Shown piece after piece: positions 22,476 to 36,141 of a DNA stretch of 64,000 bases (position 1 is the stretch's first letter; each line of letters starts with the position of its first letter). The stretch lies in the NCBI RefSeq assembly GCF_001677475.2, contig NZ_CP015229.1; one strand, given 5' to 3'. This DNA is from Escherichia coli (GTDB lineage Bacteria > Pseudomonadota > Gammaproteobacteria > Enterobacterales > Enterobacteriaceae). Position numbers and translations under genes: made by a program. The notes beneath the pieces are model-generated. The model had not been told where the DNA came from and made no database searches. It saw nothing but the letters and a program-made list of their open reading frames with translations.

Positions 22476-22551
22476 GGCCCCTTAGCTCAGTGGTTAGAGC
22501 AGGCGACTCATAATCGCTTGGTCGCTGGTTCAAGTCCAGCAGGGGCCACCA
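22476..22551 (+). tRNA. ileX: tRNA-Ile (anticodon CAU, lysidine-modified)
   Basis: 76-nt sequence ggccccttagctcagtggttagagcaggcgactCATaatcgc...gggccacca folds as a canonical cloverleaf with CAT anticodon and encoded CCA; its 3' 46 nt are repeated at 36093-36141. Confidence 0.92.
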
Positions 22552-22554
22552 GAT
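22506..22554 (+). repeat. attL core (3' part of ileX plus 3 nt)
   Basis: Exact 49-bp identity with 36093-36141, read directly from the sequence. Confidence 0.85.
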
Positions 22555-22593
22555 TTCAATGAATTACAGATGTATCCAAACTATCTTGCTTTA

Positions 22594-22627
22594 CCAGGAT
22601 ACTTATAGGATACCTCTGAGAAGTATT
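22594..22627 (+). promoter_or_regulatory. Arm-type repeat near attL (AGGATAC motifs; candidate integrase/accessory-factor binding site)
   Basis: ccaggatacttataggatacctctgagaagtatt closely matches 35964-35997 near attR (29 of 34 positions). Confidence 0.45.
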
Positions 22628-22765
22628 AACAAGTAAGAATTGGCTCATGCCTACAGAACAGTTGGGTCGTAGCAGCCGTTCACCTGCGAACAAGAAAGTG
22701 CTACGGGTCTGAACTTTTGCCCCCAACTCTCCAAGAGACCGGCAAAAACCCTGACGGAGGTATCA

Positions 22766-22909
22766 ATGGATACTTTAAGAAAGGGCTCAGACCTGCTGTC
22801 TGCACGTGTGATTGCCGTTACAGGTTTAATCGCAGCACTTGGCAATTTAGGTCTATGCCCAATAGCCGTAGTGCTAGTATGTATAGCTTTAGTTATCATG
22901 CTGAAGTAA
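22766..22909 (+). CDS. 47-aa small hydrophobic membrane peptide (MDTLRKGSDLLSARVIAVTGLIAALGNLGLCPIAVVLVCIALVIMLK)
   Basis: Strong SD (ggagg) 6 nt upstream of ATG; followed by hairpin gcccagctttcgctgggc; a single predicted TM helix. Too short to be in the ORF track. Confidence 0.5.
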   Translation: MDTLRKGSDLLSARVIAVTGLIAALGNLGLCPIAVVLVCIALVIMLK

Positions 22910-23356
22910 TGACAGCGTAACAAGCTCGGCCCAGCTTTCGCTGGGCCTCCCATTTCTACCTCCCAAAATCTATTAGAAACAATAAGCCACTAAAGAAAGA
23001 GCTTTTGCTGGCTACAATACTCACATACAAACAATTTTTATTTTTCGCGGGCGTAAAAAAACGATGGGGCTGGCAGTCCGGAAGACGTCAGGGTACAGAG
23101 ATTTGTACCCGCCTCTCCCTGTGCATGAGCACAATAAGTAACCGAAGGCGGAATTCCGCCCTCGGTACTCACATATGAGAAACGATATTTCTTCCACCGA
23201 TACCCTTTATTTGGGTATCGCGAGTAAGCCCCAAAATCTGGGTGTTACTCTTACTACCCAAACTACGGGTAGTTTCCGTAGTTTCATGGTCGAGTTGCAG
23301 ATCTGCAACTCACCCACCAGCCAACGCAATTTTGCGTTATCGGGAATATCAGCAAG

Positions 23357-23641
23357 TTACCGCCGCAGTCGTTCCGGCTTCTTCCACTGGTAAGTATTTT
23401 TCGCGCTCTCCCTCCGTTGTTGAGAACGGCGACGGTATGCCAGCAACTCAAGGACTCTGATCCGTATGTCGCGCATATCCACGCCGTTAAGCTCGATACC
23501 GTCACGGCGCATCATCTCTGCCACCACACGCGCGTAATTTTCGGCTATCACGCTGTCCGGCTGCGTGGCCTCCTATTTGCTTGATGGTTGTTTGATTCCG
23601 GTAACGCGGCGGATTAATCCCAGCAATTCAGATTCTGTCAT
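23357..23641 (-). pseudogene. Amber-interrupted ORF downstream of terS (remnant of a packaging-module gene)
   Basis: MTESELLGLIRRVTGIKQPSSK, then in-frame TAG, then the 64-aa ORF 23357..23551 in the same frame; start overlaps terS stop. Confidence 0.35.
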
Positions 23642-23652
23642 AGTGCGCTACG

Positions 23653-23973
23653 TTACTTGTCTTTATTCGGCTGCAACTTATCCGGCACATTTCCGGTAGT
23701 TTCCATCAGGTAATCAGCCAGTATCTGTGGGAGGTTGTCGGCAACTCTGGCACTGGCATTACAGGCTTTAACCACTTCCCTTTTAAGCCCATCCAGCATA
23801 GCGGGGGTAATGTGTGGGAAGCTCCTTTGCATAGTAAGCGGGAGGCTGTCCATGATTGATGAAATCTGACTCGCCAGTTTTGAAAGCGCGTACATGCAAA
23901 ACTCTGTATCAATCACGTCACCGCGATCGCGCTCGTTTTTAAGTTCCTGCGCCTCCGCCTGTGCTGTCAGTAA
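23653..23973 (-). pseudogene. Small terminase subunit (lambda Nu1-like), C-terminal fragment separated from its N-terminus by the IS insertion
   Basis: Translation ...AQAEAQELKNERDRGDVIDTEFCMYALSKLASQISSIMDSLPLTMQRSFP... parallels lambda Nu1 C-terminal region (...AQADAQELKNARD...ETAFCTFVLSRIAGEIASILDGLPLSVQRRFP...) from memory. Confidence 0.7.
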
Positions 23974-24085
23974 TCTGATCCTGACTCGTAAGTATGAGAC
24001 GACAATAACTCAGTCCGCCTGGCGCCGATTATTCTGGCCGGTTTTGTAACCTGAGTGTCATTTACATGATCCAACAGGAAATGGC

Positions 24086-25465
24086 GTGACGCTCAATACT
24101 TCTCAGGTCAGTTACTATATGACTCAGCGTAAGAAAGGTATAACTCAGCATATCTCGGCCATGAAGGCTGGTATCTCAGTCCGTTCTGGTCGTCGGATCG
24201 AAAAAGGAGAGTGGGCAAAAAACAGTGTTCGGCACTGGCGCACACGCAAAGATCCTCTGGAAGCTGTGTGGGACAGCATGCTTGTTCCTCTGTTGAAAGA
24301 GAGGCCGGCTCTGACACCAACAACTCTACTGGAGATGCTACAGGATAAATATCCCGGCCAGTACCCCAACAGCCTTCGAAGAACAATGCAACGGCGGGTT
24401 CGCGAATGGAAACTACAGTATGGTACAGAGCAGGAGGTCATGTTCCGCCAGCAACATCAGCCCGGCCTGCGAGGCCTGTCGGACTTTACTGAACTGAAAG
24501 GTGTAGTTGTCACCATCGCCGGTAAGTTGTTGGCGCATAAGTTGTATCACTTCCGTCTGGAATGGAGCCACTGGAGCTGGATGCGGGTTGTTCTGGGTGG
24601 TGAGAGCTTCTCTGCTCTGGCTGAAGGCCTGCAGGAAGCCCTCGGACAACTGGGCGGAGTGCCGGTAGAACATAAAACGGACAGCCTGAGGGCAGCATGG
24701 AAACAACAGGGCGAAGATGGACGCCGCGAGCTGACTGAGCGTTATGCTACTCTCTGTCAGCACTACGGAATGCAGGGCGTACACAATAATGCCGGTCGGG
24801 GCCACGAAAATGGCTCGGTTGAAAGTGCCCACGGACATCTGAAAAGGCGTATCTGTCAGGCGCTGATACTGCGGGGCAGTAACGACTTCAGCACCATAGA
24901 AGAATATCAGGCCTTCATCACTCAGCAGGTTATGCGGCACAACCGTAACAATCAGGATCTGGTCAAGGAAGAACGTCTTCATCTGAAACCGCTGCCGCTT
25001 CGTCGCAGTGCTGACTATGATGAGCTGACTGTGAGGGTTAGTCGCAGCAGTACCATCAATGTGAAGCACGTCGTCTACAGCGTACCTTCCCGGCTTGTAG
25101 GTCAACTGTTACGGGTCAGGTTATGGGACGATCGTCTGAGCTGTTACGTTGGCAGCAGCGAGGTCATGAGCTGCCCTCGCGTCAGACCAGAAAAAGGGAA
25201 GACGCGGGCCCGTCGTATCGACTTCCGACATGTGATCGACAGTCTGGCAAAAAAGCCCGGTGCGTTCTGCCATGCAACGCTGAGAAATGACATCCTGCCG
25301 GACGATGAATGGCGGAGGCTGTGGCGTCGCTTATGTAATCATCTGGAGCCCGATATGGCAGGAAGGCTGATGGTACATGCCGGGAAACGTGGATCTGCAC
25401 CGGCTGATGCGCTTCCTGGGTATAAAAGAAAAGGCGTTGCCGGTAGTCAATGTGATACAGCATAA
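24086..25465 (+). CDS. istA: IS21-family transposase IstA
   Basis: 459-aa ORF (GTG start) with N-terminal HTH and DDE-type catalytic region; sits immediately upstream of an IstB-like gene. Confidence 0.8.
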   Translation: MTLNTSQVSYYMTQRKKGITQHISAMKAGISVRSGRRIEKGEWAKNSVRHWRTRKDPLEAVWDSMLVPLLKERPALTPTTLLEMLQDKYPGQYPNSLRRTMQRRVREWKLQYGTEQEVMFRQQHQPGLRGLSDFTELKGVVVTIAGKLLAHKLYHFRLEWSHWSWMRVVLGGESFSALAEGLQEALGQLGGVPVEHKTDSLRAAWKQQGEDGRRELTERYATLCQHYGMQGVHNNAGRGHENGSVESAHGHLKRRICQALILRGSNDFSTIEEYQAFITQQVMRHNRNNQDLVKEERLHLKPLPLRRSADYDELTVRVSRSSTINVKHVVYSVPSRLVGQLLRVRLWDDRLSCYVGSSEVMSCPRVRPEKGKTRARRIDFRHVIDSLAKKPGAFCHATLRNDILPDDEWRRLWRRLCNHLEPDMAGRLMVHAGKRGSAPADALPGYKRKGVAGSQCDTA

Positions 25466-25510
25466 CCTGAGCAGTTATGAGCAACTACTGCGTGGCAAGG
25501 GAGGTTCGCA

Positions 25511-26266
25511 GTGAGCAATATCCATCACCTTGAACATAGCCTGCGTAAACTACGCCTGACACGAGTTGGAGCTGAATGGCACGCTCTGGAAAAACGAGCG
25601 CTGGCAGAAGGCTGGACACCATCGCGCTATCTTCTGACGCTATGCAATGAAGAACTCCTGTGGCGCGAGAGTGAAAAACTGCGTCGTTATAAAAAGGAGG
25701 CCCGGTTGCCAGTTGCCAAAACGCTGAGCGAATACGACTTCAGTCAGGTGCCGGAACTGAATGGAGCTCAGTTCCGGCAACTCTGTGAAACGACAGACTG
25801 GGTTGATGCAGGAGAAAACGTTCTGCTGTTCGGAGCCAGCGGGTTGGGGAAAAGCCATCTGGCGGCAGCGATCGTGGATGGCGTAGTAGGTCAGGGCTAC
25901 CGGGCCCGGTTCTACAGCGCAGGAGAGCTGTTGCAGGAACTACGTAAAGCCAGAGCTCAGTTGAAACTGAATGAGCTGCTACTGAAACTGGATCGCTACC
26001 GGGTGATAGTGGTGGATGATCTTGGCTATGTCAAACGCGATAGTGCCGAAACGGGTGTGCTGTTCGAGTTAATAGCGCATCGCTATGAACGTGGGAGCCT
26101 GGTGATAACCAGTAACCATCCGTTCAGCATGTGGGGCAGCATCTTCGTGGATGAGACTATGGCGGTGGCTGCGGCAGACAGGCTGATCCATCACGGATAT
26201 ATGTTCGAACTGAAAGGGGAAAGCTACAGGAAAAAGACAGCGAAGGCAGTAACAAGCGCGACTTGA
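25511..26266 (+). CDS. istB: IS21-family helper ATPase IstB
   Basis: 251-aa ORF with Walker A (GASGLGKSHLA) and Walker B (VIVVDDLGY) motifs; RBS gggagg upstream of GTG start. Confidence 0.85.
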   Translation: MSNIHHLEHSLRKLRLTRVGAEWHALEKRALAEGWTPSRYLLTLCNEELLWRESEKLRRYKKEARLPVAKTLSEYDFSQVPELNGAQFRQLCETTDWVDAGENVLLFGASGLGKSHLAAAIVDGVVGQGYRARFYSAGELLQELRKARAQLKLNELLLKLDRYRVIVVDDLGYVKRDSAETGVLFELIAHRYERGSLVITSNHPFSMWGSIFVDETMAVAAADRLIHHGYMFELKGESYRKKTAKAVTSAT

Positions 26267-26325
26267 TGTCGCCCTGAAGGGTGCGGCCAGTATAGTTGGC
26301 GCGAGTCGGCAAAACTAGTTGACGT

Positions 26326-26526
26326 CTAATATCGTAAGAGTTCATCATCATCAATCTCGCCTTTGTCGTTTGTAAGCTGGCTAATTGCATTGTTAACCCT
26401 ATTGTCTATCACGCTGGCAACATCATAAAACGCCTCACGGCCTTTACGTTCAACGGGAGTCACTCCCCACTTGTCGAATGCTGTAGCACTTACCCGGCAG
26501 CTTTGCGCCATGGTTTTTTTGTTCAT
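26326..26526 (-). pseudogene. Small terminase subunit (lambda Nu1-like), N-terminal fragment truncated at the IS boundary
   Basis: MNKKTMAQSCRVSATAFDKWGVTPVERKGREAFYDVASVIDN... parallels lambda Nu1 N-terminus (MEVNKKQLADIFGASIRTIQNWQEQGMPV...); ORF ends exactly at the IS junction. Confidence 0.7.
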
Positions 26527-26639
26527 CAGGTGCGATTTCATCAATATCCCAACTTGGTCAAGGTTTCAGGTTGGTGTGTTGGTGTTATCTTTCCCTTTTT
26601 ATTCATGGAGATAGAGCAAACAACAAAACCACCACCACC

Positions 26640-26745
26640 CCCCTGAAAAAGCTCATAAATAGCGAAAAACCGCGAGGTCGCCGCCCCGTAACGGGTCCAT
26701 ATGCCGGAAAGGACCCGTAAAAAAAGCCGGATTTCTCCGGCCTTG
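26640..26745 (-). other. Lambda-type cos site (cosN with flanking terminase-binding region)
   Basis: Minus strand reads ACGGGTCCTTTCCGG...CGTTACG-GGGCGGCGACCT-CGCGGTTTTTCGCTATTTATGA, nearly identical to the phage lambda cohesive-end region as I recall it (GGGCGGCGACCTCGCGGGTTTTCGCTATTTATGAAAA); lies ~150 nt upstream of the Nu1-like start. Confidence 0.75.
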
Positions 26746-26747
26746 TC

Positions 26748-27161
26748 TCAGATGGTTTTCAGTATGCGATCGATGTCGCCATCATCGCCCGGGTTTCTGC
26801 CAGCGTATGCCATACCAGCTGATACGGCTTTCGGGCTGTGCATGTCCATAAAGTTTTCAAAGGCTGCGGTAAGCTCTGGTGCAACCTTCTGGCGTTCCTG
26901 CTCTATGGTCATGCTAAGGATGCTTTTAGCCGTACCAACATCGATACAAGGCACGTTTGCCATTGCACGTAACAGCGGCTGATAGTCGCCAGATTCATCA
27001 AGCGCCATAATCGCATCAGAGCGCGGCTTGTCCTTCTCTTCCAGGCTGTTAAGTTGATATACGGCCTCGTAGGTTGATAAACCTCTGTCAGCCATTGCCC
27101 GCGCTTCGGCCTTAAATTTACTCGCCAGCGGTAGCGTCATGATGCTTTCATTCGTTGCCAT
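26748..27161 (-). CDS. Hypothetical protein (137 aa) between decoration-like gene and cos
   Basis: ORF with no motif I recognise; co-oriented with capsid genes. Confidence 0.55.
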   Translation of the reverse strand: MATNESIMTLPLASKFKAEARAMADRGLSTYEAVYQLNSLEEKDKPRSDAIMALDESGDYQPLLRAMANVPCIDVGTAKSILSMTIEQERQKVAPELTAAFENFMDMHSPKAVSAGMAYAGRNPGDDGDIDRILKTI

Positions 27162-27173
27162 CGTTCCCTCTGC

Positions 27174-27509
27174 TTATCGGGCCAGTGGCTGAACGGATAC
27201 GCCAGAACCCGCAAAGGCGGCGCATTTTTTCGCATCGGTGTCGACGCTCTCAGGCCAGTTAACGGCGGCGATATTAAATATCCCCGTCTTATAGCACTGT
27301 GCTGATTTCTGCGTCGACGTGTCAACGGGGTACGAGGTCAGATAAACAGCCTTGCCAGATTCCTGACCATCCCACGGCTTAAACTCGCCATTTTCCGCCA
27401 GCATCAGCGGGGTAAATTCCTGAATAACTCCAGCATCAGCGGCAAAATGTACCAGCGTCGTGGATACCTGCTGACTGCCTGCAAATAACTCAATGTATGG
27501 AGTGTTCAT
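27174..27509 (-). CDS. Head decoration protein (lambda gpD-like)
   Basis: 111-aa ORF, size and position next to an E-like capsid gene match lambda D (110 aa); assignment by context and size, weak sequence recall. Confidence 0.6.
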   Translation of the reverse strand: MNTPYIELFAGSQQVSTTLVHFAADAGVIQEFTPLMLAENGEFKPWDGQESGKAVYLTSYPVDTSTQKSAQCYKTGIFNIAAVNWPESVDTDAKKCAAFAGSGVSVQPLAR

Positions 27510-27520
27510 AGAATCCCCCG

Positions 27521-28576
27521 TTAAGCAATTTTGACGGTAACAAATTTGCGAATATCTGCCGGTACCGGCTGCGGTGCGCTGTGCGTCTGCACGTACTCAA
27601 TCGCCGGATCGCCATCCTCAATCCAGTTTTTCGGGTAGTACATGTTTTGCGTTGCGCCAGTTCTTACCGCTTCCGGATCCATAATCGCACCATAGGCCAC
27701 CAGCCCTTTATTGTTAGTGTTGCCCAGGACAAGCAAATCAGGCTCAAGGAAATATTTTTCGGTGCCATCGCTGTCGGTGTATTTGCCGGAATAGACGATA
27801 AGGGCCAGATCACCCAGATAGCCTTTAAAGCTCACCACTTCGCCCAGGTTTTTACAGGCCAGCTCTGCGGCGGATTCTGAACCACGGGAAAGATCGTACA
27901 GTTCACGGAATTTTTTAAAGCTGCGTAACGTGCGCCATACCTCAGCGCCCATAATCATGACGTTGGCGGGGCAACCAGCCTGATCGGTGTATAGTTCGAT
28001 GTCATAGATTGGATCGTGTGTTTCCTTATCTGCCTCAGACCACTTTTTGCCCGATCCCTGCGTAATGATGTTTTTAGTCGGGATTTTCCAGTCGATTTCG
28101 TATCTATTTATTCCTTCGCCCTCAATGATGTTTTTTCCGGTCGTGACCGCATTCACCGCCAGCCATTCTATGCGAGCTTTAATAGCGTTTACCTGGCGGC
28201 GCATGTTGCCAGTAATCAGGCGCATACGGCGATAAGTTGGATCGTTAAGCTGTGCCGGATCTTCTCCAGCCATGCGCATGATGGTTTTTGATGGATCGAT
28301 TTCGTGTTTTGGTTTCATATAGCCAGGGCGGATAGTGCTTGTTTCGTACCCTTTATCGCGCTGAACCTGACTCCCCACCATAGGCGAACAAAAAGCCGAC
28401 ATGGTGACTTCTTCAATATCCAGGGTATCTAACATGATGTCCTGCGTGTTGAAGGTTGCCACGTTCGGGAAAAACAGCGACGTAAACAGCGGACTGAATT
28501 TAAATTCCGAAATATCCCCACGATTCAGGTACGCGAAAAGCTGGTTAGTGTTAAGTGCCGTTGCTTTGCCTGTCAT
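27521..28576 (-). CDS. Major capsid protein (lambda gpE-like)
   Basis: 351-aa ORF aligning along its length with lambda E from memory: FKFSPLFTSLFF / FKFDPLFLRLFF, PGYMKPKHEIDP / PGYVKPKHEVNP, YSGKY...LVLGNTNN...YPKNW / YSGQY...MVLGNTQA...YPKNW. Confidence 0.8.
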   Translation of the reverse strand: MTGKATALNTNQLFAYLNRGDISEFKFSPLFTSLFFPNVATFNTQDIMLDTLDIEEVTMSAFCSPMVGSQVQRDKGYETSTIRPGYMKPKHEIDPSKTIMRMAGEDPAQLNDPTYRRMRLITGNMRRQVNAIKARIEWLAVNAVTTGKNIIEGEGINRYEIDWKIPTKNIITQGSGKKWSEADKETHDPIYDIELYTDQAGCPANVMIMGAEVWRTLRSFKKFRELYDLSRGSESAAELACKNLGEVVSFKGYLGDLALIVYSGKYTDSDGTEKYFLEPDLLVLGNTNNKGLVAYGAIMDPEAVRTGATQNMYYPKNWIEDGDPAIEYVQTHSAPQPVPADIRKFVTVKIA

Positions 28577-28815
28577 TATTCACCCCCATGAGTCTGATTC
28601 ATGCCCAGCGCCGCGCGTAAATAGGCGCGTACCTGCCAGCCTGTTGACGGCTCAACCATCGCCAGCGGCTCAAGTCCTGCCGCAATGCCTGCTTTTACGT
28701 TCTGCTGGTGGCGTTCCTTGAGCGCCTCCACGATGTCTGGGCTTATGTAAACTGTCACCCCGCCTTTTTTCTCTTCTGCCATAGTCGGAAATTCCTCTTT
28801 GACGTTAAAAATCAC
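28576..28815 (-). CDS. Hypothetical small protein translationally coupled to the capsid gene
   Basis: 79-aa ORF (possibly starting at internal MAEEKK); stop shares one base with the capsid ATG. Confidence 0.5.
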   Translation of the reverse strand: MIFNVKEEFPTMAEEKKGGVTVYISPDIVEALKERHQQNVKAGIAAGLEPLAMVEPSTGWQVRAYLRAALGMNQTHGGE

Positions 28816-28846
28816 AACTGGATGTTCATCCAGTTGTGATTATAAT
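28811..28846. promoter_or_regulatory. Perfect 14-bp inverted repeat plus TATAAT box upstream of the capsid operon
   Basis: atcacaactggatg-tt-catccagttgtgat immediately followed by tataat; read directly. Confidence 0.45.
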
Positions 28847-28951
28847 CATGATTTCATTTTACGCAATAATGTTGAGTTGTGTTGCAAATTGTGAAATGAT
28901 TTCCGGCAACAGTAGTCACCATACTGTTAGATAAAAGCCTCATATGCAAAA

Positions 28952-29028
28952 GCCCGATAAGACCCTCTGACCTTATCGGGCTTTTTTTGGGGCATAAAAA
29001 AGCCGGACTTCTCCGGCTTCTGTTACTC
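28952..29028. terminator. Pair of intrinsic terminator hairpins between the SSB gene and the capsid operon
   Basis: gcccgataag...cttatcgggc followed by T-run; and gccggacttctccggc flanked by A-run / T-run (functional on minus strand). Confidence 0.55.
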
Positions 29029-29033
29029 GTTGC

Positions 29034-29456
29034 TTAAAACGGTATGTTATCCCCGTACGGATCATCGTTACCCGCCTGTTGTTTTGCCCTGTTCAGTGCG
29101 TCAGTAGCCTGCCCTTGCTGGCCTTTTTTGCCGCCCGGTCGCGCCGTTCTCGCACTGATTACGCTGTCTGCGATAACCTGCCAGCCCTGCCGCGTTTCGC
29201 CGTTCTGGCCTGTCCACTGGCTTACCTGCATGTTACCCGCCACGCTCACCAGTTCGCCTTTGTGGTGTTTTGCCAGTGCGTCGGCCTGTCTGCCAAACGC
29301 CAGGACGGATAACCACATCGTCGCCGTTCCGTCATCTGCCTGGCTGCACGGAAGGGGGACCGCCATACTAGCCATCGTCATTTGTGTACCCTTGCTGGTG
29401 GTCTTTAACTGCGGGTCAGCCACCAGCCGCCCGTAAGCCGCTATCTGTGCTGTCAT
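29034..29456 (-). CDS. Single-stranded DNA-binding protein (island-encoded SSB)
   Basis: 140-aa ORF; Gly/Gln-rich linker and acidic C-terminal tip ...DDPYGDNIPF resembling the SSB C-terminal DDDIPF motif. Confidence 0.75.
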   Translation of the reverse strand: MTAQIAAYGRLVADPQLKTTSKGTQMTMASMAVPLPCSQADDGTATMWLSVLAFGRQADALAKHHKGELVSVAGNMQVSQWTGQNGETRQGWQVIADSVISARTARPGGKKGQQGQATDALNRAKQQAGNDDPYGDNIPF

Positions 29457-29698
29457 GCTGTCTGCTCTCCGGTTTTAACGTTGATGGTTGTCACCTGTTC
29501 CGCTTCGGCAATCTCCCGTTCTGTCAGCGTGGCAAAGTTTGCAGCTGCCGTTGTCATGAATGCGCTAATCAGTTCGGGATGTGCTTTCGCATATCCTTCC
29601 CCGGCGTTGCGGTCGATGATTTTTATCGACACCCTTAACCAGTGTTCCGTCAAATCAAGGGCGTGCGATTGTGATTTTTTTGTGTGCTTCGCTGTCAT
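29453..29698 (-). CDS. Hypothetical protein (81 aa), coupled to ssb by ATGA overlap
   Basis: ORF directly downstream of the iteron array; no recognised domain. Confidence 0.5.
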   Translation of the reverse strand: MTAKHTKKSQSHALDLTEHWLRVSIKIIDRNAGEGYAKAHPELISAFMTTAAANFATLTEREIAEAEQVTTINVKTGEQTA

Positions 29699-29742
29699 AG
29701 GCTTTATCTCACAGCAGTAAATTAAAATTTTTGCGTTTTAAC

Positions 29743-29971
29743 CCTTCACCTGTTCACCTTTTGATATTTTCCATTTAAATTCATACTGTTAAGGGGTGAA
29801 CAGTTTCACAAAAACTATTCACCAACTGTTCACCACTGTTCACCCTTGAAGCTCAATAAACAACCAAAAAGGTGAACAGTGAATAGTTTGGTGAATAGTT
29901 CATAAATAACTGTTCACCCTATAATATACTGATATAAAAGATATTTATGACAGGGTGAACAGTGGTGAACA
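29743..29971. repeat. Iteron array (P4 ori/crr-type TGTTCACC octamers)
   Basis: Perfect TGTTCACC at 29751, 29827, 29837, 29911 and its complement GGTGAACA at 29795, 29871, 29954, 29964, plus degenerate copies (tattcacc, ggtgaata), within ~230 bp immediately 3' of the primase gene. Confidence 0.8.
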
Positions 29972-29985
29972 GTTATTCCATAAGT

Positions 29986-31803
29986 TTAATTTTTGCTATC
30001 GTCATTAGTGACTGATACACATGATGGCATCCAGTCTTCTGATTCCTCCGTCAGTGTCACGTTTGAACGTAAACCGTGCTTCGTTTTCCGTTTTATATAC
30101 TCCCTGCCATATTCCGCCATTGCCCCAGGCATATCTTTACCGAAGCGCGTCAGTGTTACAGGTTTACCAAACCCATGAGCCCTCATATAAGCCAGATAGG
30201 CATGATAGAGATACCTGCGCGGGCTGAATGGCACAATTTCAGCATTACCCACTAACAGGCCATCACACATTACCGACGCCATGAGATAGCCGCAGAAGTC
30301 CACCAGCGAATCCCCCTCTCGCTTTATCGCCAGTGCTTCTTCAGATTTCTGCTGCTCATATAACAGGCGTCTGGCTTCGTCCTGGTCAGCAAACCTTGTA
30401 AGCAGATGGCGAATCACTACCGCCAGCTCACCTTCTATTTTTTCCGCCAGCATCGGATCGCGTTCGTTCTCCGGTACAACTTCCGAAAAATTGAATATCA
30501 CCCGACGACGTGAGATCCCCCCGCTGCGGTCACTGAATGACATGGCGTTATTGTTAACCGCCAGCACTACTGCCGGAATACGCGTTGAGTAGGGGGCTTT
30601 GTGTTTCGGGTCAATTGCCACCTTGTCACCGCCTGTAATGGCCTTAATTCCTGCCCCATCACCAGCGTAGCGGGTCATATCCGGCATGATAATCAGCGAA
30701 AAGCCAACCACTAACGCGCGTTCCCTTGCATCTTCCAGCGCCTTCATGCTTGCCGATACTGTGTTGGCCTTACCCGCCAGCATGGTGCAAATCTCCGCCA
30801 TCACGCTTTTACCACTTCCCCCTGGACCTGTTACCTCAATGAATAACTGCCAGTCGTACCGGTTCGCCAGCACCATGAATAATGCAGCCAGTACGCGATC
30901 CGCCTTGCGGTCATTCTCAGCCACCGAACGGCGTAACCACTTCCAGAAATTCGGCGCATGTGTTGCCAGCGTTTCCCCCTCTGCTGGTGGGCTGAAAGGT
31001 AATTCACTGGCAATTAACAACCAGTCGTTTTTGTTATGCTCCCGAAAATTACCTGTTCTGGTATCAAATACCCCGTTACTGAATCCAATCAGGTTACGGG
31101 CTGTATTCCCCATTACAGGCAAACTTAACTTCATGGTATCGACCGCCGATTTAATGGCGTTCTGCGAATAGCTGATCTCCGCATCAATGAAAATCTGCGC
31201 CATAGCACGCTGTAACTCTTTATCCTGAACCGGCTCCCATACAACGCCGTTGTAATGGTGAACAGTGTCAGAGTCAGCATGAATCGCCAGTTCACCGCCA
31301 TAATGTGCCAGGAGAACTTCGCCGCGTTGACTTGCTCCCATCTGGTTAAGCGCCAGTGATGAAGCGTTATCGTCTTTTACCCGCTCTTTTTTCTTTACAG
31401 GCAGTTCAACTACCTTTTTCTTTTCCGCCAGCTCTGCCCGTTCACGTTCCAGATATTCGCGCCAGTTCTCCCGTTTCTGGCTGTGCATTCCTTCAGGATA
31501 ATAATCAGCATCCCTGACACCTGCCGCTGCCAGTTTCTGCCCGATGGTATTAACAAGCCCCGGACGCAATAACCCCGCCTGGTAGAGACGCACACGATAG
31601 CGTCCGTCCGGTACGATTTGCAGGTTGTCCAGTTCGGCAAGTTGTTGCTCTCCAAGCCAGACAGGAGGCACGTTATCGCCAGCCAGTCGCCCGTCCTGTT
31701 CCTGCCACTGCTTCGCATGTGCCCACGCATCACTACCCGCAAAAATGATGACTTCCGTCATTTTGTCACGTGGCTGGTGTTTTAAATTTGGCGCTTTTTT
31801 CAT
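29986..31803 (-). CDS. Satellite replication protein (P4 alpha-like primase-helicase, D5-type NTPase)
   Basis: 605-aa ORF (likely start MKKAP with ATGA overlap to upstream gene); Walker A GPGGSGKS; adjacent to TGTTCACC iterons. Confidence 0.75.
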   Translation of the reverse strand: MKKAPNLKHQPRDKMTEVIIFAGSDAWAHAKQWQEQDGRLAGDNVPPVWLGEQQLAELDNLQIVPDGRYRVRLYQAGLLRPGLVNTIGQKLAAAGVRDADYYPEGMHSQKRENWREYLERERAELAEKKKVVELPVKKKERVKDDNASSLALNQMGASQRGEVLLAHYGGELAIHADSDTVHHYNGVVWEPVQDKELQRAMAQIFIDAEISYSQNAIKSAVDTMKLSLPVMGNTARNLIGFSNGVFDTRTGNFREHNKNDWLLIASELPFSPPAEGETLATHAPNFWKWLRRSVAENDRKADRVLAALFMVLANRYDWQLFIEVTGPGGSGKSVMAEICTMLAGKANTVSASMKALEDARERALVVGFSLIIMPDMTRYAGDGAGIKAITGGDKVAIDPKHKAPYSTRIPAVVLAVNNNAMSFSDRSGGISRRRVIFNFSEVVPENERDPMLAEKIEGELAVVIRHLLTRFADQDEARRLLYEQQKSEEALAIKREGDSLVDFCGYLMASVMCDGLLVGNAEIVPFSPRRYLYHAYLAYMRAHGFGKPVTLTRFGKDMPGAMAEYGREYIKRKTKHGLRSNVTLTEESEDWMPSCVSVTNDDSKN

Positions 31804-32099
31804 TTCTGCTCTCTCCACGCGGCAATCATGTTTTTCAGTTCCTGTAGTTTTTTATCAACATCCATACATGACACATGGTTATTTCTGGAAGGCGGGATTT
31901 CCCGCCGGAATCTGCAAATAAAGATCTCCACGTTCAGCGAGCTATGAAATGAATAGCCATCACGAATAAAATACACACGGTCAAACATTATCGATTTTAC
32001 TGTTACTCTGTTGCCGTTCTTATCCCGATAAATAGCGCCGGGGATAATTTTGGGATGTGCATAACCGCTGGCAGTCAAGCCAGATAAATACGTTCTCAT
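31800..32099 (-). CDS. Hypothetical protein (99 aa)
   Basis: ORF translationally coupled to the primase gene; no recognised domain. Confidence 0.5.
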   Translation of the reverse strand: MRTYLSGLTASGYAHPKIIPGAIYRDKNGNRVTVKSIMFDRVYFIRDGYSFHSSLNVEIFICRFRREIPPSRNNHVSCMDVDKKLQELKNMIAAWREQK

Positions 32100-32105
32100 G
32101 ATTAT

Positions 32106-32426
32106 TTATCCCCGATTTGAATCAGTATTCGCTTTCTTTATGGCATTTAATGCATCTGTGGCATTTTCAATGGTGCACCGTAACGAAATATCAAAATGTC
32201 CAAGCATTGCCAGTAACAAACCGATATTACCCATATCAATGCGCATGGCCTTTTCGTCATAGTCCTCATTTTCTGACGCATGCCACATCAGGCTACCAAT
32301 TGACGCAACGGCCATTGATATATTGTCAGTCGCCCCATCCGCAGCGGAATAAACCTTTTTAGCAATATCATGCTCACAGTTAAAATGCGGATTAATCAGG
32401 TACTGGTAATTTGACATATCAGGCAT
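32106..32426 (-). CDS. Hypothetical protein (106 aa)
   Basis: ORF upstream of the 99-aa gene; lower GC than flanking island DNA. Confidence 0.5.
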   Translation of the reverse strand: MPDMSNYQYLINPHFNCEHDIAKKVYSAADGATDNISMAVASIGSLMWHASENEDYDEKAMRIDMGNIGLLLAMLGHFDISLRCTIENATDALNAIKKANTDSNRG

Positions 32427-32622
32427 GGCACACCCCCTGACGAATACGGGCGGCGAATACCATCACGCAGCCAGCCGGGGAGTGCTGGCGTGCTTCCTGT
32501 TCGCTGGTGGCCACGATGGTAATCACACGCGGTTTTGCGGCGCTCAGGGCGATAAAACGCCAGGCGAATTTATTCAGGTTGTGCGAATCCCGCCCTTGCG
32601 GGTGTATGGTATGATTTCTCAT
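32419..32622 (-). CDS. Small protein, possibly Icd-like (host cell-division inhibitor family of P4-like elements)
   Basis: 67-aa ORF MRNHTIHPQGRDSHNLNKFAWRFIALSAAKPRVITIVATSEQEARQHSPAGCVMVFAARIRQGVCHA; the family assignment is from memory of similar annotations and is tentative. The 334-aa ORF in the track is an upstream stop-free extension that looks non-coding. Confidence 0.45.
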   Translation of the reverse strand: MRNHTIHPQGRDSHNLNKFAWRFIALSAAKPRVITIVATSEQEARQHSPAGCVMVFAARIRQGVCHA

Positions 32623-32717
32623 AGCTACCTCGATACTCTCGTTATCGTTGGTGGTTAGAAGCCCTGCGAGTGGTAACGACACTTGCGGGGCTTTGTTTTT
32701 TGTTGCACTTACTGTTA

Positions 32718-32763
32718 ATGTACGTACGTAATATTGATGATAATAGGAGTTACGTACGTACAT
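32718..32763. promoter_or_regulatory. Twin palindromic operator (two copies of TACGTACGTA, 30 bp apart) in a divergent promoter region
   Basis: atgtacgtacgtaat at 32718-32732 and gttacgtacgtacat at 32749-32763; second copy overlaps the start codon of the RHH-like gene. Confidence 0.55.
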
Positions 32764-32953
32764 GTCAACATTAAAGCGGGATAAATCACCACGCGGCGAG
32801 GGATGGTCGCCGACATTCCAGATACGAATTAGCAAAGAACTACGCCAGCAAGTAAACGAGGCAGCAACCGCCGATGGCCTAACCCTCGGCAATTGGTTTA
32901 AAGAATTAGCTCGTGCCGAACTAAAGCGACGCGGCATTGAACCTAAAGGCTGA
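32762..32953 (+). CDS. Small DNA-binding protein, probable ribbon-helix-helix fold
   Basis: 63-aa ORF; TFQIRISKELRQQVNEAA... resembles a beta-strand plus helix RHH pattern; two short basic ORFs follow at 32957-33082 and 33138-33317. Confidence 0.5.
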   Translation: MSTLKRDKSPRGEGWSPTFQIRISKELRQQVNEAATADGLTLGNWFKELARAELKRRGIEPKG

Positions 32954-33429
32954 TGTATGACTGAAAAGCAGACCGATAACAAACTTTCTCTACCAGAGAA
33001 TAAACCAGCAGGCTTCTTACCAAGAAAAATCCTTGATGAGATCAAACGCCGCCAGCGGCGCAAGGCCAAAGAGCAGGAGTAACCATCACCAGCGCCGTGG
33101 TGCGGTGAACTGTGGCGCACAGGGTTACAGGTATCTACGATGACTGACAAATCATTAAAGAAATTATCCTCATCCAAGAAAAAACAACGCAAAAATGCGG
33201 TAAACGAACATGAACCGGAGAGATTCGCACCATGTGCGTTTATCCTTGAGAAGTACCTTAAAGAGTATTCTAGGAAAATACGCTCATTGCAGGCATGGCA
33301 GCGAATCGAGCCAGACTGATAGCATTGCCCACCAGCCAACAACCTGGTATTCTGGATATGCTCAAGTTTAGTGTTATGCCACTGGCGGCCCTCTGCGGTC
33401 GCCTTTGTTTTATGTGCCATCACTCCCCC

Positions 33430-33648
33430 TTACACCGTCTGCGTTCTGCGAGTGGATGCAAGATAAGCATCGAGATCAGTGCGCATATACAGCACTTTGC
33501 GCCCCAGCTTATGGAAAGGGATTTTTACCTTGCCAGTACAGGCCCAGTTCGCCAGCGTTTGATTGTTAACGCCAAGGTAGGCAGCAGCTTCAGCACGTGT
33601 AAGGCGGTCAGTTGATAAATCAGATTTCTTTAAATTCATATCTATCAC
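33430..33648 (-). CDS. alpA: AlpA/excisionase-family HTH regulator
   Basis: 72-aa ORF with LTRAEAAAYLGVNNQTLANWACTGKVKIPFHKLGRKVLY (MerR-like HTH_17 pattern). Confidence 0.75.
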   Translation of the reverse strand: MIDMNLKKSDLSTDRLTRAEAAAYLGVNNQTLANWACTGKVKIPFHKLGRKVLYMRTDLDAYLASTRRTQTV

Positions 33649-33709
33649 CGTGTACTTCTAAGTAACAACGGTGATAAATATCAATCAATGGGTATTTTGT
33701 TTTTAGCCC

Positions 33710-33786
33710 AATAGCCAGTTGCTGTGGGGAGGTTACCAGTTATTTAGCCTTAATAGCCAGCTATTAAGATACACTAGCCAGCTATT
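33710..33786. promoter_or_regulatory. Three TAGCCAG-containing operator-like repeats upstream of alpA
   Basis: aatagccagttgc (33710), aatagccagctatt (33752), ctagccagctattg (33773); plus inverted repeat atcaccgtg...cacggtgat at 33651-33682. Confidence 0.45.
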
Positions 33787-34507
33787 GGGGGTGAACAAGT
33801 TCAAACGAAGAATATTTATCAGGTCTTGGTGGTTGTGCTCCTGATTCTTTAATCCATTTATCCAGAGTGTTTTTACTTACTTTCCCATGATAGTAAACAG
33901 AAAGCTCGTTCAATAAACCTGTTTTACTGGCTTTAGGGTACTTTTCCCATGTTAGTTTAATTACGTGCATAACTTCATTGTAATAATGATTTCTTGGTTT
34001 GCGCGCTTTTTCTTTCTGTGATAAGGATAAAGCATCTTTTATTTTTTTATCTTTTTCATGGTTCGATATAATTTCTTCAAAAAAGTCATTAAGCAATAAC
34101 TCAACACCAACCCTAGTAAGTTTGTCTGCGTGATTACGCATTCCGACATGGTACAATGCAACTGCTGAATTTAAAGTATCGACAACCTGACAAGATAGTT
34201 TACTATCAAATATTAAAAAACCACATGAATCCATTCTTATAGCTAATTCAATAGGATATTGCTCGATTTCTCTTAATTCTAAACCATAACACAAAAGAAA
34301 TTCTCTTGTTGGATACTTTGATTTATAAAAATAATCTCTTATATCATCAATCAAGCGTTTTATAGCCTCTATGGTGGAGTTTTTCGGGGATAAAGATACA
34401 GGAACGTTTAAAACTGAAGAGTCTCGCCCACCAGTAATTAAATCATTCATAACCGAATAAATAATATATTGTTTGACCGATATATTGTTATCACCCATAT
34501 ATGTCAT
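33782..34507 (-). CDS. AT-rich orphan protein (241 aa) in the integrase-proximal cargo position
   Basis: Long ORF with visibly lower GC than the rest of the island; overlaps the int stop; no motif I can recognise. Confidence 0.6.
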   Translation of the reverse strand: MTYMGDNNISVKQYIIYSVMNDLITGGRDSSVLNVPVSLSPKNSTIEAIKRLIDDIRDYFYKSKYPTREFLLCYGLELREIEQYPIELAIRMDSCGFLIFDSKLSCQVVDTLNSAVALYHVGMRNHADKLTRVGVELLLNDFFEEIISNHEKDKKIKDALSLSQKEKARKPRNHYYNEVMHVIKLTWEKYPKASKTGLLNELSVYYHGKVSKNTLDKWIKESGAQPPRPDKYSSFELVHPQ

Positions 34508-35912
34508 TCTTTTCTTGTACTATAGCAAATAGTAAACGACGTTTTTCATCATCACTCATGCCCTCCAGTGCGGAAAGTAATTGCGCATCGATAGATTTTT
34601 TACTCTCCACCAGCCCGGCATGTTCCAGAATTGCCCGTTCTATCCGTGATGCTGGCTCCAGCAGTTCATCAGCACCGAAATGTAAATACCCCTGCGTTAC
34701 GTCGGCACTTCGCATAGTGCGGTGATTCATCAGGCGCTTGAGGATGTAATTACCCACGCCCACCAGCTCAGCAACCGTTCCGAACGTCCGGCGTGCGTCG
34801 TGCCACTTAAACGGGACAGGGAAGAGCATTTCATCGTTCGCCTCAGGAATGGTAGCCGCGCTTATCCGGTCTATGATGTGCCGTGTCTCCTGAATCACTC
34901 CCTTCACGCCAGGAAACACCAGCACATCATCAGCAGCTTTGTTTTTTAGCCTGCGAAGAAACATTTTCCGCAACGTATCAGTGATCGGCAGTTCAAGCGG
35001 ATCCCCGTTTTTCGTGGTGTCTATCCAGAAAAAGCGACCGCCCATATTCACGCGATCCCACGTAAGGCCAAAAACTTCTGATTTCCTCAGTCCGGTAAAC
35101 AGTGCCATTTCCACGGCATCACATACCGTAACAGCTATATCATCCCTTTCCTGTTCGCCCTGGTCGCGCACAGCAGCTACAGCAGCAAACCAGCGGGGAA
35201 AATCATGCAGGCGGATACGTTCCGTTTTTCTTACCGTTCCGTGCCACTGGCGCTTGGTGCTCAGTACCAGAGTCGGCGGATCCGGTAAAAGAGTATTACC
35301 CGCATCATCACGGTAATGATCATGCGCAAACCGACACACAGCACGTAGCGCACGCGCCCATAAATCGGCCTGTGCCTTGCTTCCTGTACCAACCCCAGCC
35401 CGTAACGTGGTTTTATCAGCACCGAACCATACAGCCCCATCAGTGATGGCCTTATGCCGTTGTTCCACCCGTTCGCGGGAAATACTGGCGAGGGTATGGG
35501 CCATCCAGTCACCGGAATAATTCTGTAATATGCTGCGGTACTGTTTTTCTGTGGAGGGTTTCAGGCGGTGGCCACGATTTTTTACGTAGGCGTCAATCGC
35601 CTCACTCAGCGTTATCATGGCCTTGTTGTTAGTGCGCTTTGCTATGTTCGGATTTATCCCCGTTGTGGCGACTTCGCCAAGGAGTTCCATAGCTTTAGCC
35701 CTGGCATTATCCACGCTCAGATCAGGAAAACGCCCCAGCGTTGCACGAATAAATTTTCCGTTACGCTTACGGGAAATGCAGAAACTTTTCACACCAGACG
35801 AACCTACACGGACACGCAGCCCGTTAACCTCCGTATCACCATATTCGACCTGTCCATGTTCCGGCGTTGGCAGTTCTGCAATTTTTACTTTAGAGAATCT
35901 GAATAATTTCAC
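34491..35912 (-). CDS. int: Tyrosine site-specific integrase
   Basis: 473-aa ORF from a GTG start; catalytic signature region (LRKSE..., WHDARRTFGT, ...QGYLHF) with an N-terminal arm-binding-like domain. Confidence 0.85.
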   Translation of the reverse strand: MKLFRFSKVKIAELPTPEHGQVEYGDTEVNGLRVRVGSSGVKSFCISRKRNGKFIRATLGRFPDLSVDNARAKAMELLGEVATTGINPNIAKRTNNKAMITLSEAIDAYVKNRGHRLKPSTEKQYRSILQNYSGDWMAHTLASISRERVEQRHKAITDGAVWFGADKTTLRAGVGTGSKAQADLWARALRAVCRFAHDHYRDDAGNTLLPDPPTLVLSTKRQWHGTVRKTERIRLHDFPRWFAAVAAVRDQGEQERDDIAVTVCDAVEMALFTGLRKSEVFGLTWDRVNMGGRFFWIDTTKNGDPLELPITDTLRKMFLRRLKNKAADDVLVFPGVKGVIQETRHIIDRISAATIPEANDEMLFPVPFKWHDARRTFGTVAELVGVGNYILKRLMNHRTMRSADVTQGYLHFGADELLEPASRIERAILEHAGLVESKKSIDAQLLSALEGMSDDEKRRLLFAIVQEKNDIYG

Positions 35913-35935
35913 TCATACACCCCACCAAGCGATCT

Positions 35936-35997
35936 GGTATCCTGGAAAATCGCTTGTTCTGCTCCAGGATACCTATAGGATACCGTAAAGAAGTATT
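35936..35997 (+). promoter_or_regulatory. Arm-type repeats near attR, directly upstream of the integrase start
   Basis: ggtatcctgg / ccaggatacc inverted pair plus tandem GGATACC copies and the block shared with 22594-22627. Confidence 0.45.
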
Positions 35998-36092
35998 TTG
36001 GGGTATATACAGGTATTTATACAGTAGTTTTAAAAAATGCTAAGGTATTGAAAAGTATCGCTAAGTATCTGTAAGTAAAGGGTTATCAACCA

Positions 36093-36141
36093 ACTCATAA
36101 TCGCTTGGTCGCTGGTTCAAGTCCAGCAGGGGCCACCAGAT
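36093..36141 (+). repeat. attR core (displaced partial copy of tRNA-Ile 3' end)
   Basis: 49-bp exact copy of 22506-22554; upstream sequence is not tRNA-like, so this is not a functional tRNA. Confidence 0.85.

Follow-up and report, generated by a model that had tools for sequence, protein, structure and literature searches.

We analyzed a 64-kb stretch of Escherichia coli DNA (64,000 nucleotides of contig NZ_CP015229.1, hereafter the window) and identified in the 3' end of its tRNA gene ileX a 13.6-kb block that is very probably a Gram-negative, cos-type phage-inducible chromosomal island (PICI) of the EcCICFT073/EcCIIHE3034 family, placed there by an integrase. An earlier reading made from the letters alone (the sequence-only reading) had taken the block for a helper-dependent, PICI-type satellite and not for a degraded prophage, and this is supported by a gene order like that of EcCICFT073 and EcCIIHE3034 and by the presence of five PICI components, one of them, the regulator, a candidate only. 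The novelty that it implied for a "composite" architecture did not hold, as the architecture is already known from a very common, catalogued E. coli satellite family, with the gene order of the two named islands and with capsid-module proteins (orf137, the major capsid protein homolog, MCP, and the head-decoration homolog, Dec) 93-96% identical to theirs. The island is a mosaic, in which a packaging and capsid module that matches EcCIIHE3034 is joined to a replicase allele of P4-alpha type and an integrase specific for ileX. It is one more, damaged, copy of its kind, yet a clean annotated example, with exact attachment (att) sites, an empty-site match, and a mapped cos site and replication origin (ori), and it represents a clear case of inactivation of a satellite packaging gene by an insertion sequence (IS).

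Integration site and relation to known islands

The only tRNA gene in the window is ileX, labeled tRNA-Met by ARAGORN because of its CAT anticodon; the tRNA-Ile assignment is correct, given its identity to K-12 ileX. A repeat finder identified two exact copies of a 49-bp direct repeat, the first in the 3' part of ileX, with a start-to-start spacing of 13,587 bp, so that both the repeat delimiting 13.6 kb and the tRNA-Ile location given in the sequence-only reading were recovered. The island measures 13.6 kb including the IS and about 11.2 kb without it. In K-12, ATAGCAAAGGCTGACGAG and then nfeF (yqjH) lie directly 3' of ileX, and in the window the same sequence comes after the second repeat copy; the 13.6 kb are therefore a precise insertion in the conserved rpoD-mug-ileX-nfeF-nfeR-aer region. 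The comparison with the empty mug-ileX-yqjH site, proposed earlier as a check, agreed, with the K-12 junction and the attR flank matching base for base. Core chromosomal genes flank the island, rpoD-mug on one side and nfeF-nfeR-aer on the other, which excludes portal, large-terminase, and tail genes contiguous with the block.

Annotation was based on profile scans of the open reading frames (ORFs) with PHROGs, NCBIfam, and Pfam (Table 1). Apart from the IS genes and one small ORF, every gene of the island is on the minus strand. The scans bore out the int, single-stranded DNA-binding protein (SSB), Nu1-like terS, and E-like and D-like capsid genes that had been proposed, and identified no portal, large terminase (TerL), prohead protease, connector, tail, or lysis gene among the scanned island ORFs. 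The proposed lack of portal, large terminase, protease, and tail genes thus stands, with the qualification that orf137 is a protease/scaffold-related protein, homologous to the C-terminal domain common to phage 21 gp5 and gp6 (the lambda C and Nu3 equivalents).

We matched the island components by hand to the PICI model of SatelliteFinder, comprising an integrase, an AlpA/MerR/Stl regulator, a primase-replicase, capsid morphogenesis, and terS (PMC10085698). By its predicted components, the island fits this five-component model; 97% of elements carrying the complete set of five are from E. coli (PMC10085698). We found a tyrosine integrase with a specific att site and flanking direct repeats; a helix-turn-helix (HTH) protein of the HTH_17/excisionase family at the regulator position beside int, canonical alpA being absent; a primase/replicase gene with iterons directly 3' of it; a capsid homolog; and a small-terminase homolog, its gene IS-inactivated in this copy, with a helper-type cos. 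The size lies between 10 and 20 kb and the genes are unidirectional.

The order shared with EcCICFT073 and EcCIIHE3034 is int-HTH-icd-DUF4222-pri-ori-SSB-68 aa-MCP-Dec-137 aa-cos-TerS/Rpp-93 aa. EcCICFT073, the experimentally characterized E. coli cos-PICI prototype, reads int-AlpA-(small divergent genes)-icd-...-DUF4222-pri-orf-SSB-PerC-68 aa-MCP (351)-Dec (111)-137 aa-cos-RppA (144)-93 aa, with the same layout and unidirectional gene order and with identical cosQ and cosN. Identities to it were 94% for MCP (c1499), 95% for Dec (c1500), 95% for orf137, 93% for orf68, 88% each for the Icd-like protein and orf81, and 71% for SSB. It differs in its cosB, its integrase and att site, its AlpA, its Pri (49% identity), and an extra PerC gene, and it has no TerS, with the 144-aa RppA (c1503) in the place of the island's 180-aa TerS and no blastp similarity between the two.

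EcCIIHE3034, a reference Gram-negative PICI that encodes TerS (Fillol-Salom et al. 2018, ISME J; PMC6092414), lies between cspD/yljB and clpS in E. coli IHE3034, and its genes follow the island's order between icd and the 93-aa gene inclusive, with TerS (180 aa) where EcCICFT073 has RppA. Here, identities were 93% for MCP, 96% for Dec, 94% for orf137, only 68% for orf68, 85% for the Icd-like protein, 88% for orf81, 91% for SSB, and 96% for TerS. It differs in an integrase of 23% identity, another att site, a canonical AlpA instead of the HTH_17 protein, a Pri allele of 48% identity, the lack of TGTTCACC iterons of the island's type and of orf241, and an intact terS.

An IS-free island 99.1-99.5% identical to ours is present at ileX in strain TUM1886, with an intact gene annotated "terminase small subunit." Among 5,426 complete E. 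coli genomes, 597 had the capsid module and 758 the terS+cos segment, each at >=80% coverage, with up to 6 matches to the latter in some genomes. The IS-bearing version was identified in no complete genome of the collection searched.

A capsid-forming PICI (cf-PICI) at ileX in E. coli A41 (NZ_CP028735, 1577-16300) shares the att site and the left arm (int, orf241, HTH_17, icd, DUF4222, pri, and SSB), a case of the module exchange described for cf-PICIs. Unlike the island in the window, cf-PICIs (EcCIEDL933 type, A41) encode an HK97-type MCP, protease, portal, head-tail connector, HNH protein, P27-type TerS, and TerL. We rejected a cf-PICI assignment, as no TerL, portal, prohead protease, or head-tail adaptor/connector was present among the scanned ORFs.

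That the block is a degraded lambdoid prophage, a remnant that kept E, D, Nu3-like, and Nu1-like genes and cos, is extremely improbable, even though the head genes and cos are lambdoid homologs and both an IS and a nonsense mutation are present in this copy. Identity of the head genes to their lambda/21 counterparts is only 36-47%, and the order E-D-Nu3'-cos-Nu1 is unlike that of phages. This reading is effectively refuted by the finding that hundreds of genomes carry the compact 11-kb architecture with its ORFs intact, and at differing att sites, by ratios of nonsynonymous to synonymous substitution (dN/dS) of 0.1-0.2, and by replication that is P4-like and not lambdoid. PHROGs scans of the island identified no lambdoid immunity, lysis, or tail remnants, and complete head, tail, lysis, and immunity modules contiguous with cos are likewise absent between the core chromosomal flanks.

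Replication, packaging, and the interrupted terS

The replicase is 51% identical to residues 320-771 of P4 alpha, its helicase and ori-binding part. An iteron cluster was identified in the interval that separates the pri stop codon from orf81. The octamer TGTTCACC occurs in 10 exact copies in the window (1.8 expected by chance), with 8 of the 10 in 29751-29971 and the remaining two isolated at 31257 and 33790; with TATTCACC variants included, the cluster holds at least 11 sites. The iterons had been described as flanking the replicase gene, which needs correction, as they cluster only 3' of it, in agreement with the ori location 3' of pri reported for Gram-negative PICIs (PMC6092414). The P4 GenBank record gives TGTTCACC and close variants in ori and crr, the latter directly 3' of alpha, as "ori type 1 repeats"; we used this annotation instead of the literature, where a full-text search for the octamer gave unrelated primer sequences only. 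The identity to P4 alpha and the P4-annotated repeats, identical to the P4 octamer, therefore support the P4-type replication put forward earlier.

The same evidence could speak for a P4-like satellite that remodels helper capsids via Sid/Psu and is activated via Delta/Epsilon, as could the size of about 11 kb, the tRNA integration, the Icd-like gene, and the iteron position 3' of the replicase gene, as in crr. We consider this reading very improbable and rejected it, since P4 Sid, Psu, Delta, Epsilon, Int, cI, and Vis had no blastp match at E<1e-3 in the island proteins, and since cos is of lambda/21 type and not of P2/P4 type. There were no PHROG matches of such kinds, and the combination of Sid, Psu, and Delta with Epsilon/Ash was not identified, as expected from the sequence-only reading, which had recognized neither a textbook P4 layout nor sid, psu, or delta. 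The P4-type int/vis and the alpha primase domain are further P4 features that the island lacks; conversely, the island has lambdoid cos/TerS packaging with a Nu1-type TerS and lambdoid head-gene homologs that P4 does not have. An Rfam scan of the whole island, together with a sensitive scan of the icd leader, identified the tRNA only and no C4/CI or IsrK-type RNA.

The cos site was confirmed as lambda-like. The cosN sequence GGGCGGCGACCT occurs exactly and once in the window, at 26675-26686 on the minus strand; upstream of it, ACGGGTCCTTTCCG aligns with the R4/cosQ region of phage 21, and downstream, CGCGGTTTTTCGCTATTTATGA corresponds to the I2 region shared with phage 21. The adjoining cosB segment (26545-26674), which extends to the terS start, resembles neither the R3-I1-R2-R1 cosB of phage 21 nor lambda cosB, whereas cos and cosB are nearly identical to those of EcCIIHE3034.

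The sequence-only reading had listed a Nu1-like terS and overlooked that the gene is split by a 2,339-bp ISEc10-family element, which is flanked by a 7-bp target duplication (TCGTAAG, at 23986-23992 and 26332-26338). In silico removal of the IS and one duplication restored an ORF for a TerS of 180 aa, almost identical to the TerS of TUM1886. Full-length identity of the reconstructed TerS is 36% with lambda Nu1 and 34% with phage 21 gp1, being 28-33% in the N-terminal DNA-binding part and 42-45% in the remainder; the corresponding values between Nu1 and gp1, in the same columns, are 54% and 46%. This pattern would fit a TerS with changed DNA specificity in which the oligomerization and TerL-binding part has been kept. 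The IS copy is itself defective, lacking 70 bp near 25380 relative to full 2,410-bp copies in other genomes, which cuts IstA to 459 aa from 499 aa and removes the usual istA/istB overlap.

The IS should abolish the step in which TerS reads the island cosB and recruits helper TerL. The 93-aa gene, 76-77% identical to its CFT073 and IHE3034 homologs, has an in-frame stop at about codon 22 (tblastn, 81% identity), a second sign of decay beside the IS. With terS split and this stop codon present, the copy's ability to direct its own packaging is probably impaired; its integration, excision, and replication functions look intact.

We outlined a life cycle by homology with the experimentally studied EcCICFT073, for which helper-induced AlpA expression, dependence on int and pri, and cos packaging by lambda and phi80 have been reported (PMC6092414), along with PICI-specific cosB recognition (PMC6739421). 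A lambdoid helper phage would switch on the island HTH activator, and Int would excise the island. The P4-alpha-like helicase/initiator would then bind the TGTTCACC iterons just 3' of its own gene and, with the island SSB, produce concatemers. In an intact island, the Nu1-family TerS is predicted to bind the island-specific cosB via its diverged N-terminal domain and to recruit helper TerL via the better-conserved C-terminal part, a strategy that would resemble that of pac-type Staphylococcus aureus pathogenicity islands (SaPIs) and not the Rpp-TerS heterocomplex of EcCICFT073. The helper terminase would finally cut at a cosN identical to that of lambda/21, and the DNA would enter helper-made heads and tails.

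Several points weigh against this account of the island. Its life cycle is a prediction from sequence and homology, and the pairing of its TerS with helper TerL is deduced from domain conservation only. The islands of IHE3034 and 18098, which encode TerS, were not mobilized, EcCIIHE3034 not by its resident prophages (PMC6092414). Plasmids with PICI cos were transferred at a low level by helper TerS (PMC6092414), so the IS may not abolish transfer. Pfam identified no primase domain in Pri, and the N-terminal primase region of alpha is absent; of the primase-helicase gene that had been proposed, the P4-family helicase/initiator part was upheld and the primase part was not. The induction step is the weakest, because homology between the 72-aa HTH protein and the tested AlpA is lacking and the alpA of the A41 element is missing here. 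The supposed AlpA-like regulator is an HTH_17/excisionase-family protein without blastp similarity to characterized AlpA proteins, its best E value against AlpA of EcCICFT073, AlpA of IHE3034, and P4 Vis being 0.12; those three are mutually 43-87% identical. The A41 element carries both this HTH_17 gene and a canonical alpA, and it is precisely the alpA ORF that is absent from the island in the window (33312-33460).

It is rather unlikely that this copy is still fully mobilizable, with helper TerS or the TerS of a co-resident related PICI acting on its cos in trans. Its cosN and cosQ are intact, PICI-cos plasmids were transferred by the helper terminase alone at reduced frequency (PMC6092414), the multiple terS+cos matches of some genomes could supply such a TerS, and 13.6-kb units would, as a trimer, fit a lambda-sized head (arithmetic only). 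However, cosB is unlike that of phage 21 over its whole length, and the loss of the cosB-reading RppA strongly reduced EcCICFT073 transfer (PMC6739421). No second island, helper prophage, or second cos was identified in the 64-kb window, in which the remaining large ORFs outside the island were unscanned but showed no phage-sized gene block.

The capsid operon

The operon of orf68, MCP, Dec, and the scaffold fragment is conserved and under purifying selection, with dN/dS values against EcCICFT073 of 0.10 for MCP, 0.14 for Dec, and 0.21 for orf137. MCP is 46% identical to phage 21 gp7 and 43% to lambda E, and Dec is 47% identical to SHP and 37% to D. The orf137 protein matches the C-terminal end of phrog_53, a head-maturation-protease family, and its full length can be aligned to the last ~120 residues of gp6 and lambda Nu3, with 36% identity to residues 115-192 of phage 21 gp6, the Nu3 equivalent (blastp, E 5e-9).

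Upstream of orf68, the control region contains a perfect -10 hexamer, TATAAT, at 28838-28843 and a 13-bp perfect palindrome followed by T5 (28811-28840), which as RNA has a folding energy of -19.6 kcal/mol (z -6.2) and lies ~15 nt before the orf68 ribosome-binding site. This control element is kept in four islands (EcCICFT073, EcCIIHE3034, TUM1886, and that of the window), EcCICFT073 differing by a single symmetric C.G to T.A change, and it could be a promoter-proximal terminator or an operator. At its other end, just before cosQ, the operon is closed by a hairpin that is the twin of the one at 28996-29017. We considered whether the control region mimics a lambdoid late promoter and rejected this idea, since a distant blastn search against 50,697 phage records gave chance matches only. 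A ribbon-helix-helix fold for orf68 was also unsupported, its AlphaFold2 (AF2) model having a mean confidence (pLDDT) of 66 and no Foldseek match in the Protein Data Bank (PDB), and a PDB sequence search giving chance matches only.

Capsid genes are present in 21 of 29 reference Gram-negative PICIs (PMC10111431), and the role of their capsid, decoration, and scaffold-like genes, carried by most Gram-negative PICIs and under purifying selection, is a gap already acknowledged in the literature. For EcCICFT073, the capsid (c1499) and head-decoration (c1500) homologs have been reported, and deleting either changed neither transfer nor lambda interference (PMC6092414). No small capsids were observed, and the DNA that had been packaged was of phage size (PMC6092414). 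None of the capsid-module genes, singly expressed, inhibited lambda. All marked EcCICFT073 derivatives carried the marker within the capsid module, at c1501 (tetA) or in place of c1499 (cat) (PMC6092414, Table 1 and text), and we infer from the gene numbering that c1501 is the orf137 homolog. The module has therefore perhaps never been assayed intact, and the lack of phenotype and the phage-sized DNA may not reflect an intact module.

These data bear on whether the satellite is partly capsid-forming, so that the orf68-MCP-Dec-scaffold operon would build the island's own shells on the helper portal and only portal, protease, TerL, connectors, and tails would be stolen. This is favored by the island's coding for an MCP homolog of full length and HK97 fold, for a decoration protein, and for the C-terminal domain of a scaffold, each under purifying selection, and also by the discreteness of the operon between twin terminators, its own conserved control element, and the position of the EcCICFT073 markers. 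We consider it unlikely, given the deletion and expression results, the phage-sized DNA, and the lack of portal, protease, and connector genes, unlike in true cf-PICIs. Quite unlikely, in our view, is the more specific proposal that the operon is a helper-controlled unit building satellite-specific or hybrid shells on the helper portal, which would make the TerS/Rpp-type E. coli PICIs intermediate between classical and capsid-forming PICIs. Such a role would have been missed so far because the EcCICFT073 markers lie inside the module and because the corresponding head proteins of lambda and phi80 share only 37-43% identity with those of the module.

Cos SaPIs of the SaPIbov5 type carry the capsid homolog Ccm, and SaPI1 has CpmB. 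The former are likewise satellites with a helper-type cos and a capsid-protein homolog, and orf137, a short scaffold-related protein, is conceptually like CpmB; neither has a sequence relationship to the island proteins. This comparison draws partly on the discussion in PMC6092414.

Putative regulators and other island features

The features identified in and around the island are listed in Table 1.

Table 1. Coordinates of the island, its genes, and its sites in the window
Feature	Position	Strand	Evidence or detail
ileX, tRNA-Ile(CAU), integration target	22476-22551	+	Sequence identical to K-12 ileX; anticodon CAT
attL core	22506-22554	+	Copy 1 of 49-bp repeat: 3' 46 nt of ileX + 3 nt
Variable left-end segment without recognizable gene	22555-23359	.	
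93-aa conserved PICI gene	23360-23641	-	Last gene of EcCICFT073 and EcCIIHE3034
terS, C-terminal part (putative TerL-binding/oligomerization part, Nu1 family)	23653-23992	-	phrog_1790/57; junction mapped against IS-free island
ISEc10-family (IS21-like) IS, 2,339 bp	23993-26331	+	Alignment with IS-free TUM1886 island; family named by the NCBI Prokaryotic Genome Annotation Pipeline (PGAP)
istA	24086-25465		IstA matches NF033546
istB	25511-26266		IstB matches NF038214
terS, N-terminal part (winged-HTH DNA-binding domain), start ATG 26541	26332-26541	-	phrog_57
Nu1-family small terminase, two fragment ORFs	26326-26544 and 23653-23916	-	Profile scans
cos site	26545-26718	-	cosQ-like box 26705-26718; cosN 26675-26686; I2-like segment; island-specific cosB 26545-26674
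Intrinsic-terminator-like hairpin GCCGGAGAAATCCGGC then T7, closing the capsid operon	26720-26741	-	Repeat family D3
orf137, truncated scaffold-like protein	26748-27161	-	phrog_53 C-terminus, E 1e-8
Head-decoration homolog (lambda D/phage 21 SHP family)	27174-27509	-	phrog_49, 2e-27
Major capsid homolog (lambda E/phage 21 gp7 family)	27521-28576	-	phrog_29, 5e-110
orf68, conserved first gene of capsid operon	28576-28782	-	phrog_3255
Control region of capsid operon	28783-29033	-	Two terminator-like hairpins after ssb, TATAAT, palindrome + T5
SSB	29034-29456	-	TIGR00621, phrog_44
orf81, conserved PICI protein	29453-29698	-	phrog_1231; 88% to CFT073/IHE3034 homologs
Replication origin, AT-rich, directly 3' of pri	29747-29977	.	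8 exact TGTTCACC iterons + TATTCACC variants, both orientations
Pri/Rep, P4-alpha-like SF3 helicase/initiator, 610 aa	29986-31818	-	D5_N, DUF5906, Pox_D5 domains
DUF4222 protein	31800-32099	-	
orf106	32106-32426	-	phrog_15327
Icd-like (host cell-division-inhibitor-like) protein	32419-32622	-	NF033153; TUM1886 annotation; 88% to CFT073 homolog
Strongest promoter-like site in island, TTGACA-17-TATTAT	32718-32768	-	Would drive icd-pri operon
orf63, small YlcI/YnfO-like protein, divergent	32762-32953	+	
HTH_17/excisionase-family DNA-binding protein, 72 aa	33430-33648	-	
orf241, low-GC (about 33%) cargo gene	33782-34507	-	GC profile
Tyrosine integrase	34491-35912	-	phrog_1, 9e-40; PGAP annotation in relatives
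attR core	36093-36141	+	Copy 2 of 49-bp repeat, then K-12 post-ileX sequence

Two exact TACGTACGTA palindromes, which occur nowhere else in the 64 kb, lie on either side of the -10 of the promoter-like site upstream of icd. The orf63 protein has a weak match to Arc-like repressors, and its gene starts at the -35 of this site; its position is that of the Stl repressor in Gram-positive PICIs. For Gram-negative PICIs, a master repressor is not known (PMC6092414). A strong hairpin at 32658-32694 in the icd-pri leader has two allelic forms among the four islands, with an invariant outer stem; it had no Rfam match, and no compensatory pair was identified in these four sequences only. The 334-aa ORF listed mechanically at the position of the Icd-like gene is an artefact.

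At the left end, the ~480 bp beside attL (22552-23035) are not shared by the TUM1886 island, which is otherwise 99% identical but has ~220 unrelated bp at this place, and a 100-aa ORF in this segment (22651-22953) matched nothing. Further, ~250 bp downstream of TUM1886 terS are missing from the island in the window. PADLOC identified no defense system among eight small or unclassified island proteins, and Pfam had no match to orf137 or orf241. The 241-aa orf241 protein was also without a match in PHROGs, NCBIfam, and PADLOC; it has just 13 homologs among 5.8 billion proteins, all "hypothetical protein" or unnamed, and its gene, between int and the HTH gene, occupies the accessory-gene position of PICIs.

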